Made by a program: the position numbers and the translations under genes. The notes under the pieces are model-generated. The model was given only the letters and a program-made list of their open reading frames with translations, made no database searches and was not told where the DNA came from. From Methylotenera sp. (GTDB lineage Bacteria; Pseudomonadota; Gammaproteobacteria; Burkholderiales; Methylophilaceae), in assembly GCF_036401095.1 (NCBI RefSeq), contig NZ_DASWWA010000027.1, positions 25,091 through 89,090 of the forward strand: DNA of 64,000 nt, written 5' to 3'. Numbering within the stretch: the stretch's first letter is position 1; each line of letters opens with the position of its first letter. This document shows positions 38,663 to 40,695 of the stretch, piece by piece.

Positions 38663-38686
38663 AAAACAAAACCCGCCGAAGCGGGT
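38663..38686. repeat. 24-bp direct repeat, copy 1 (terminator hairpin, minus strand)
   Basis: AAAACAAAACCCGCCGAAGCGGGT, identical to 40662-40685. Confidence 0.9.
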
Positions 38687-38812: not shown

Positions 38813-39850
38813 TTACAGCAGATTGTCTTCCTTAAGCCTATGAAAAGCTAATCGTATTTCTTCCTCTGGAAACACATTTCGTTTATTCTTTTCTAGAGCA
38901 ACCATCTCTGAGGCAATGTATTTAATATCGTTGTTACCTACCTCTGATGTAGTGGCTAGCTTATGTACAGTAGATAGCAACTCTAGACCGTACGGAGTTT
39001 CAAATCCATCAACTAGCTTCGTTAAATTATCTATAACTGCTTCGCTTTTCTCATCATTTTTCAAATAGTCTTCTGCAACTGCAAATCCAGCCGGCGTAAC
39101 ATGTGCTTCTCTATCTGTTTGAAAGCCGGCTATTAATTTGTAATCAACCTCAAGAGCAACTATCGCTTTTTTTAAAGCTTCTGAATATGGTCCATAAAGA
39201 TTTTTAGTGAAATCCAGATTTAATGGCACACCCATAACCTGCAAAAAATAAGCAATCTTCTGAAGAGAAAGGCGATCCAATACCCCCCCAAAAGAAGTTT
39301 CAAGCTCGGCAATCGATTTTAGAAAAATCGCCCTACCTTGAGTCATTTTTAAATTCGTATCAACATACTCTGGATCGTCACTTTCATTTAAAGGTGCGTA
39401 AATAGAAACACTAACATCATCCAATACAGACAGTTTTTCCAATATGATTGGGCGCACCACATCCCAATCAAGCCCACCATTACCGCACCCCAATGGTGGA
39501 AGAGCTATTGATTTAATTTTGTATCTTTTTATATCACCGACTAAGGCATCTAGCCCTTCGGAAATATATTCCAGTTTAGATTTGGCTCGCCAGTGATCTT
39601 TTGTTGGAAAGTTCACAATAAATTTAGGCTCGCTTTTACCAAACAAATTTGTAAGCTCGAATATCAGCATGGAGCCAGGACGCAAAACTTTGGCATTGCA
39701 CGCCTTCTTGTAAGCTTTGTAGTTCTCTGGCCAACGACGCTTGAACTCAAGCGCTACTCCCTTACCCATGACTCCGACGCAATTAACCGTGTTTACCAAG
39801 GCTTCGGCTTTATCTAAAAACAAATCCCCTGATTTGAATGTAATACTCAT
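38813..39850 (-). CDS. darG: DarG antitoxin (macrodomain ADP-ribosyl glycohydrolase)
   Basis: GDL...AEALVNTVNCVGVMGKGVALEFK, IVNFPTKDHWR, IALPPLGCGNGGLDW, then a C-terminal LQKIAYFLQ...YGPYS domain. ATGA overlap with the darT stop. Confidence 0.92.
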   Translation of the reverse strand: MSITFKSGDLFLDKAEALVNTVNCVGVMGKGVALEFKRRWPENYKAYKKACNAKVLRPGSMLIFELTNLFGKSEPKFIVNFPTKDHWRAKSKLEYISEGLDALVGDIKRYKIKSIALPPLGCGNGGLDWDVVRPIILEKLSVLDDVSVSIYAPLNESDDPEYVDTNLKMTQGRAIFLKSIAELETSFGGVLDRLSLQKIAYFLQVMGVPLNLDFTKNLYGPYSEALKKAIVALEVDYKLIAGFQTDREAHVTPAGFAVAEDYLKNDEKSEAVIDNLTKLVDGFETPYGLELLSTVHKLATTSEVGNNDIKYIASEMVALEKNKRNVFPEEEIRLAFHRLKEDNLL

Positions 39851-40572
39851 ATCACAAAACATCCAGGTTTAGAATAAACAGGTAATTGATAACCAGCAGA
39901 TTGAATCATATTACTCACAAGAGCTTGTTTTTGTGCATTTGGAGCCACCACGCAAATGAACGTGTTCATAGGAACCGCAGTGCGAACCAAAAACTCTGCC
40001 ATTCTAATTGACCCACGTCGCTGATATCGTTCAGGCGTTGCTCTGCTATAAAAAAACTTACATGCCCCTCTATATCCAATTTCAGGGATTTCACCTGCAA
40101 AATAAAACTCATCCTCGTCAAACATAGTCCAGTCTATGTGGCTTTCAAGCATATTAATATCACTAACAACAATTGGCTTAGGTACTGTCGTAGTAAGTGC
40201 ATAGTTACTAAAACAACATTCTAGACCAGCAATGTATAAATCCGTAACTCTAGCGACCAAAAAAACTCTATCATCTAATCGAGATTTTGTTGATGCTGCT
40301 CCATCATTGGGCGGTATCACATCTACAGACCCACGATGAATGGCACAGGTAAATGACGTTAACGGGGAGAAATAGAAAGCAACGCAGTCATTAACCACCC
40401 CACCAAAAGGTAGCTGAAAATTATTTGTGCCACGCCGTTGAACTAGATTCTGATAACTAGTTTGATGACAGATCTGTGGATTAGGATGGTTTTTTGAACG
40501 AACCTCTCCATCTGCTAGAAATGTTGGTAGATCTCTATAGTCTATCTGTCTAAATACAAATCGCTCTGGCAT
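39847..40572 (-). CDS. darT: DarT toxin (DUF4433 ssDNA ADP-ribosyltransferase), divergent
   Basis: L..FL..G.V...N, QRR, GGVVNDCVAFYFSP, DW and AEFLV (Glu193) motifs. Translationally coupled to darG. Confidence 0.85.
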   Translation of the reverse strand: MPERFVFRQIDYRDLPTFLADGEVRSKNHPNPQICHQTSYQNLVQRRGTNNFQLPFGGVVNDCVAFYFSPLTSFTCAIHRGSVDVIPPNDGAASTKSRLDDRVFLVARVTDLYIAGLECCFSNYALTTTVPKPIVVSDINMLESHIDWTMFDEDEFYFAGEIPEIGYRGACKFFYSRATPERYQRRGSIRMAEFLVRTAVPMNTFICVVAPNAQKQALVSNMIQSAGYQLPVYSKPGCFVI

Positions 40573-40661
40573 TACCTGAACCTACACCTTTAATGGCTAT
40601 ATGTTGTTACTATACTGAAATAATTGACTAATTAATAATGAAAATAAAATACATGTTCCAG

Positions 40662-40695
40662 AAAACAAAACCCGCCGAAGCGGGTTTGTTTTTTT
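40662..40695. terminator. groEL terminator (bidirectional), containing direct repeat copy 2 at 40662-40685
   Basis: Minus strand ACCCGC-TTCG-GCGGGT-TTTGTTTT, with A/T runs on both sides. Confidence 0.9.

Follow-up and report, generated by a model that had tools for sequence, protein, structure and literature searches.

The darTG locus

The window analysed here is a stretch of 64,000 nucleotides from a Methylotenera sp. genome (NCBI RefSeq assembly GCF_036401095.1, contig NZ_DASWWA010000027.1, positions 25,091 to 89,090 of the forward strand). It carries a darT toxin gene and, directly downstream, a darG antitoxin gene, which together form a 2-kb islet between groEL and an FKBP gene (Table 1). 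We regard the pair as probably a functional DarTG2-type toxin–antitoxin and anti-phage module on an islet inserted at the groEL terminator. The locus itself is an ordinary mobile DarTG module; its toxin is a long-loop variant within the known DarT family, and the arginine in the first motif of this toxin is not new.

Table 1. Features of the darTG islet (positions in the window; aa, amino acids; nt, nucleotides)
Feature	Position	Strand	Basis
darT, long-loop DarT2-like ADP-ribosyltransferase toxin, 241 aa	39847..40572	-	Pfam, PADLOC and NCBIfam models; fold; dN/dS
Arg8 of DarT, codon AGA (+ strand tct)	40549..40551	-	sequence read; hhalign; phmmer search of the PDB with E. coli DarT2
Main clade-specific insertion of DarT, residues ~154–171 (D154–C171), DEFYFAGEIPEIGYRGAC	40060..40113	-	gap in canonical profile (hhalign)
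Catalytic Glu193 of DarT, codon GAG, RMAEF motif	39994..39996	-	sequence read; aligned with Thermus E160 (hhalign)
darG antitoxin, N-terminal macrodomain and C-terminal DarT-binding domain	38813..39862	-	NCBIfam and PDB matches
A+T-rich leader upstream of darT, presumed promoter region, between groEL terminator copy and darT ATG	40573..40661	-	inferred
Direct repeat copy 1, same 24 nt as copy 2, terminator after darG	38663..38686	.	hairpin scan
Direct repeat copy 2 (AAAACAAAACCCGCCGAAGCGGGT), groEL terminator hairpin	40662..40685	.	hairpin scan

Identity and fold of the toxin

The window DarT, whose N-terminus reads MPERFVFRQIDYRDL, is recognized by the Pfam DarT model PF14487 (DUF4433) with 69.9 bits, compared with a curated cut-off of 22.5, and by the PADLOC DarT model with 102.9 bits. 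A first AlphaFold2 model, based on a 22-sequence alignment, was mediocre, with a predicted local distance difference test score (pLDDT) of 76, and a second one from 133 sequences reached a pLDDT of 94.6 and a predicted template modelling (TM) score of 0.92. In a Foldseek comparison of the DarT model with the PDB, Thermus DarT2 (7omv) was the top match (TM 0.86, E 1.9e-17), and TM values of 0.79 and 0.47–0.54 were obtained for the DarT of Mycobacterium tuberculosis (Mtb) and for E. coli C7 DarT1 (8baq), respectively. An hhalign comparison of a profile of 22 long-loop clade members with 26 canonical DarTs gave a probability of 100% (E 1.1e-40). It placed R47 opposite Thermus R51, the NAD+-phosphate arginine, and Y67 opposite Y71, the motif tyrosine. 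Both residues, together with E193, are invariant across 133 aligned clade members, and phmmer and hmmsearch alignments against the PDB agree with hhalign over residues 11–122, a range with R47 and Y67 inside and R8 outside. The window protein belongs to the DarT family, with the DarT fold and the catalytic residues kept.

Among the known systems, the DarT2 enzymes of Thermus sp. 2.9 and Mtb (7omv–7on0, 7yk3) are the best structural matches and share the NAD-binding Arg, the Tyr and the catalytic Glu, and their DarG antitoxins are homologous to the window DarG in both domains. They differ in having His at motif 1, a loop of 21–24 residues before the catalytic Glu, and Met78; the base is contacted by His119 in Thermus and by Asn in Mtb, and sequence identity of the two to the window DarT is only 15–17%. 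The guanine-specific DarTG1 of E. coli C7 shares the DarT superfamily fold and the toxin–antitoxin logic, but is paired with NADAR as antitoxin, and its DarT1 carries Ser where the motif Tyr would be (PMC11543638). DarT1 membership is ruled out by the low TM value to 8baq, the kept Tyr67 and the macrodomain antitoxin. C35, C120, C171, H29, H36 and H145 were also considered as a zinc or disulphide site, an idea set aside because only C171, C207 and C238 are conserved in the wider clade.

The loop insertion and the long-loop clade

The distance from W148 to E193 in the window DarT is 45 residues; most canonical DarTs have 24 here, and Thermus DarT2 has 21. The sequence-only reading had reported this extra segment, and the hhalign profile comparison agrees, leaving about D154–C171 and a few further residues unmatched. 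Conservation is higher in the insertion than elsewhere in the protein (mean top-residue frequency 0.70 versus 0.56 for the whole protein in 42 full-length members); the insertion has the consensus P..A.IPEIGY.GVC with the motif IPEIGYxGVC in the same members, and is modelled with a pLDDT of 92–97 in the 133-sequence model. ADP-ribosyltransferases recognize their substrates with the loop that precedes the catalytic Glu, the ARTT loop. Both DarT1 and DarT2 hold DNA on this loop (PMC11543638).

The phylogenetic setting was characterized with an exhaustive HMMER search of representatives at 50% identity, which returned 502 hits; of the 150 best, those of full length were combined with four reference DarTs into a set of 147 rows for FastTree. 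On the tree, 49 rows, the long-loop Arg-type DarTs, group together with 99% local support on a branch of 0.64; with the mid-loop His-type sisters they make up a 65-row clade with 96% support. The Trp-to-Glu loops of the His-type sisters (P0156–P0169, P0192, P0202, P0203, P0260) span 32–48 residues and have a shortened insertion with the core G-[YF]-[CS]-x-[YF]. In the mid-loop sister groups P0156–P0169, P0192, P0202 and P0203 this reads W.lFfE.P..gG[YF][CS].[YF], and these groups are unlike the window DarT in their motif-1 His and in the base-contacting residue, which is His or Asn. From these aligned loops, stepwise growth seems to have taken place across the 65-row super-clade.

A word-index search found 262 clusters of ~238-aa proteins at 46–98% identity, which belong to Alphaproteobacteria, Methylophilaceae and Xanthomonas, and F7, R8, Q33, R47, Y67, P70, W148, F151, G169, A192 and E193 are invariant in the 133 aligned members. 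Scanning one genome per species yielded 36 long-loop darT loci, in Rhodobacterales, Rhizobiales, Acetobacter, Sphingomonadales, Thalassospira, Methylophilus, Methylotenera and Xanthomonas, and clade relatives also occur on plasmids of Paracoccus, Agrobacterium, Rhizobium and Mesorhizobium. The window darT is under purifying selection, with ratios of non-synonymous to synonymous substitution rates (dN/dS) of 0.10–0.19: 0.19 against L046, a 98%-identical metagenomic copy of the locus, and 0.10, 0.16 and 0.15 against L050, L003 and L004, respectively. The proposal in the sequence-only reading of a DarTG subtype is supported by the conserved insertion, the 99% support and 0.64 branch, the constant presence of DarG, and scores of 72–107 bits on an NCBIfam DarT model with a cut-off of 150.

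DarG and its coupling to DarT

The antitoxin open reading frame is intact and, with 359.8 bits, passes the cut-off of 250 set for the NCBIfam model antitoxin_DarG. Its match to the macrodomain of Mtb DarG (5m3i) has an E-value of 4e-45, and the alignment with 5m3i shows that the catalytic Lys (K80 in Mtb and Thermus) is kept in an FPTK motif; residues 195–343 match the C-terminal toxin-binding domain of Mtb DarG (7yk3_B) at 4.5e-15. The darT stop codon TGA (39849–39847) overlaps an in-frame darG ATG (39850–39848) as ATGA. Translationally coupled genes are classically arranged in this way. The ATG at 39850, which gives a protein of 345 aa, is likely the true darG start, because the gene calls in L046 show a 4-nt overlap. 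An intact and coupled DarG had been claimed from the sequence, and the score and the overlap both agree with that. The pairing extends across the clade: all 35 complete loci encode DarG as the next gene downstream, starting within ~12 nt of the darT end, and DarG is more conserved than DarT (51–89% versus 42–75% identity across clade loci).

The motif-1 arginine

Arg8 falls in the column of Thermus DarT2 His13 in the hhalign alignment, a placement that also rests on the ungapped extension of the phmmer and hmmsearch alignments and on E. coli Arg18 standing opposite Thermus His13. A His is found at motif 1 in Thermus (H13) and DarT1 (H17), and the window DarT has Arg there. Its codon AGA differs from CAT and CAC at all three positions, and Arg8 is invariant among the 133 aligned clade members; the earlier claims of a His-to-Arg replacement and of its not being a read error therefore both stand. 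Arg8 as a read error or a novelty is ruled out by this invariance and by the presence of the same residue in the DarT2 of enteropathogenic E. coli (EPEC) O127:H6.

The E. coli enzyme was reached by a tblastn search of plasmid records with a canonical Arg-type representative, which led to record L002 (NZ_OL790696.1). This 4.8-Mb E. coli record is labelled ‘plasmid unnamed’ and is evidently a chromosome, on which darTG immediately follows the gene for a type I restriction S subunit. The L002 DarT has 218 aa, starts MAYDYSASLNPQKALIWRIVHRDNI, and its residues G49, R57, M84, M86, R92, R166 and E170 match the published numbering of EPEC O127:H6 DarT2 (PMC13368585). The EPEC enzyme is active and ADP-ribosylates the third position, a thymine, of 5′-TYTN-3′ in single-stranded DNA (ssDNA) (PMC13368585). 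In 249 complete genomes of E. coli, the gene seen in L002 bears the annotation darT. Motif 1 of the E. coli DarT2 reads IW-R18-IVH, and phmmer against the PDB places R18 opposite the His of Thermus (iyHithidn) and Mtb (vwHfthadn). Thermosipho africanus DarT (7omu) carries Tyr in the same column (lyYithidn), a third residue type in a structurally studied DarT.

A MAFFT alignment of the 26 canonical DarTs has a clean His/Arg column at motif 1, and among the 83 short-loop DarTs of the 147-row set 53 have His and 26 have Arg, with at least 17 changes in this column on the FastTree of the 147 DarTs. The motif-1 His is not truly defining for the DarT family, and Arg is a common, functionally tolerated alternative to it in active, thymine-specific DarT2. 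Because the same Arg is found in EPEC DarT2 and the column has changed repeatedly, Arg is no sign of a shift towards the R-S-E toxins. The view that the substitution was remarkable and resembled cholera toxin fails on these grounds, namely EPEC Arg18, the 26 of 83 short-loop DarTs with Arg, the repeated changes and the kept Tyr67. The sequence-only reading had itself allowed that the variant might prove to be a common, already characterized one. This holds for the Arg, which is frequent and present in a thymine-specific enzyme, but not for the insertion clade, for which no characterized member was found.

The EPEC DarTG2 system further resembles the window system in its R/Y/E catalytic set (with R18 in the place of R8), macrodomain DarG, short darT–darG overlap and type I restriction–modification neighbours, the last of which are also seen at some clade loci. 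It differs in a 24-residue Trp-to-Glu loop, a His at the base-contacting site and Met84, and in its phylogenetic position, in a 20-row all-Arg clade that stands apart from the long-loop clade on the tree.

Function and substrate specificity

We infer the enzymatic activity, thymidine target and defence role of the window DarTG. DarT would transfer ADP-ribose from NAD+ onto a base in ssDNA, most likely at N3 of thymidine, and the ADP-ribosylation would block replication once the toxin is released, for example upon phage infection. The DarG macrodomain would remove the ADP-ribose from DNA, while the C-terminal domain would bind and sequester DarT. A thymidine target is favoured because the window DarG is highly similar to the Mtb and Thermus enzymes that hydrolyse thymidine–ADP-ribose. 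In DarTG1, guanine–ADP-ribose is reversed by NADAR and not by macrodomains (PMC11543638), which also argues for thymidine as the base.

Several observations weigh against a functional module of the DarTG2 type. The window DarT scores 72.3 bits on the NCBIfam model NF048013 (toxin_DarT), under its 150-bit equivalog cut-off, as do the other long-loop clade members (78–107 bits, all <150), whereas EPEC DarT2 reaches 262.6 bits and the mid-loop His-type DarTs pass with 181–221 bits. The thymine-coordinating His119/Asn and the Met78 of DarT2 are both missing: by hhalign, the column of the base-coordinating Thermus His119 (Asn in Mtb) holds Ala125, near-invariant in the clade, and that of Met78 holds Phe74, with Phe in the clade's inner part. 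In the window lineage, a near-invariant clade Asn two residues after Ala125 has become Thr127 (~40192–40194) and the near-invariant Pro155 has been replaced by Glu with two added residues (EFY; ~40102–40110). These last changes are partly common to the 98%- and 87%-identical metagenomic copies. A scan of the darT leader for a consensus sigma-70 promoter passed none. A 2021 Nature paper on DarT structure reportedly grouped 16 DarTs. No literature test of a long-loop clade member was found, in a coverage that excluded this Nature 2021 paper and LeRoux 2022, the supplements of the V. cholerae DarTG paper contained no names matching the clade, and a literature search linking DarTG to the host genera gave nothing relevant.

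The altered base contacts raise the question of what the clade recognizes. With the same chemistry, its members could recognize another ssDNA motif, base or nucleic acid than the TNTC/TYTN thymidine recognized by the DarT2 of Thermus, Mtb and EPEC, a possibility to which we assign a real but minority chance. The insertion lies in the ARTT loop just before the catalytic Glu and is strongly conserved and confidently structured, the clade stands on a 0.64 branch, and it has lost Met78 and has a near-invariant Ala in the His119 column followed two residues on by a near-invariant Asn. A compensating shift at the base-contact site is conceivable. The canonical macrodomain DarG, so like the thymidine–ADP-ribose hydrolases of Mtb and Thermus, speaks for the usual target, since in DarTG1 it is NADAR that reverses guanine–ADP-ribose (PMC11543638). 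So do the mid-loop His-type relatives, which score as DarT equivalogs and share the shorter insertion, and because of them loop growth alone need not change the base. An altered specificity is plausible, and would more probably concern the sequence motif than the base.

The low score on the curated NCBIfam model and the changes at N127 and P155 could also be read as signs of decay, with DarT a degenerate, inactive relic beside a functional DarG. We consider this quite improbable, as the frame is intact, all catalytic residues are kept, the ATGA overlap of translational coupling is retained, and the dN/dS of 0.10–0.19 indicates constraint even in comparison with the 98%-identical copy. It is harder still to credit that Arg8 marks a switch to a cholera toxin-like (R-S-E) mechanism or to a protein target. 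The residue does lie on strand beta-1 at the class-defining position, but the Tyr67 of the H-Y-E class is retained and EPEC DarT2, with the same Arg, ADP-ribosylates thymine in ssDNA (PMC13368585). In the Foldseek search of the PDB, the folds of the cholera, pertussis and heat-labile toxins were matched only at E >0.7 and TM ≤0.38, and an R-S-E-like (ARTC) enzyme is ruled out by the lack of such a fold match together with Tyr67.

A functional DarTG2-type module remains the reading we prefer, and within it the specificity of the clade is of practical interest. DarT toxins are used as models of phage defence and have lately also been turned into DNA ‘append editors’. These editors are limited by the enzyme's four-base motif, and ortholog mining has been called for (PMC13368585). 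We tentatively raise, with some doubt, the idea that the long-loop Arg-type clade reads a different ssDNA motif than canonical DarT2, or possibly a different base, which would follow from the conserved IPEIGYxGVC insertion and the loss of the base-contacting His and Met78. If so, DarT would have a third functional class, still with a macrodomain-type DarG as its partner, and this class could supply ADP-ribose ‘append’ genome editing with new target motifs. Since the clade is conserved and coupled to DarG, while its substrate loop has been rebuilt and its base contacts have changed, it makes sense to search it for new motif specificities.

The islet and its mobility

The two perfect 24-nt repeat copies, both of them terminator-like hairpins on the minus strand, bracket the 2-kb darTG islet, and the G+C fraction of the islet is 0.37–0.42 compared with 0.44–0.48 in the flanks. 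Among 81 genomes from the family, only one has the window DarT. In four genomes of the same genus, the joined flanks match contiguously, that is, the site is empty and the groEL–FKBP junction uninterrupted, and in one genome (G098) exactly one repeat copy lies between groEL and the FKBP gene at the empty site. The two closest named homologues, in Methylophilus sp. 42 and a Methylotenera metagenome-assembled genome, have darTG elsewhere in the genome. The darTG islet is mobile. A close relative in the genus, G099, has a different open reading frame of 300 aa at the same groEL/FKBP site (L045, 552–1454), which had no Pfam or PADLOC match, and the intergenic site looks like a small variable hotspot.

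The neighbours of clade darTG in other genomes include housekeeping genes as well as genes of other kinds. The pair lies next to hsdM in Neorhizobium (L012) and Agrobacterium (L017), next to a reverse transcriptase gene in Xanthomonas hortorum (L022) and next to a phage-type integrase gene in Acetobacter fabarum (L024), and these neighbours fit a defence-island or mobile context.

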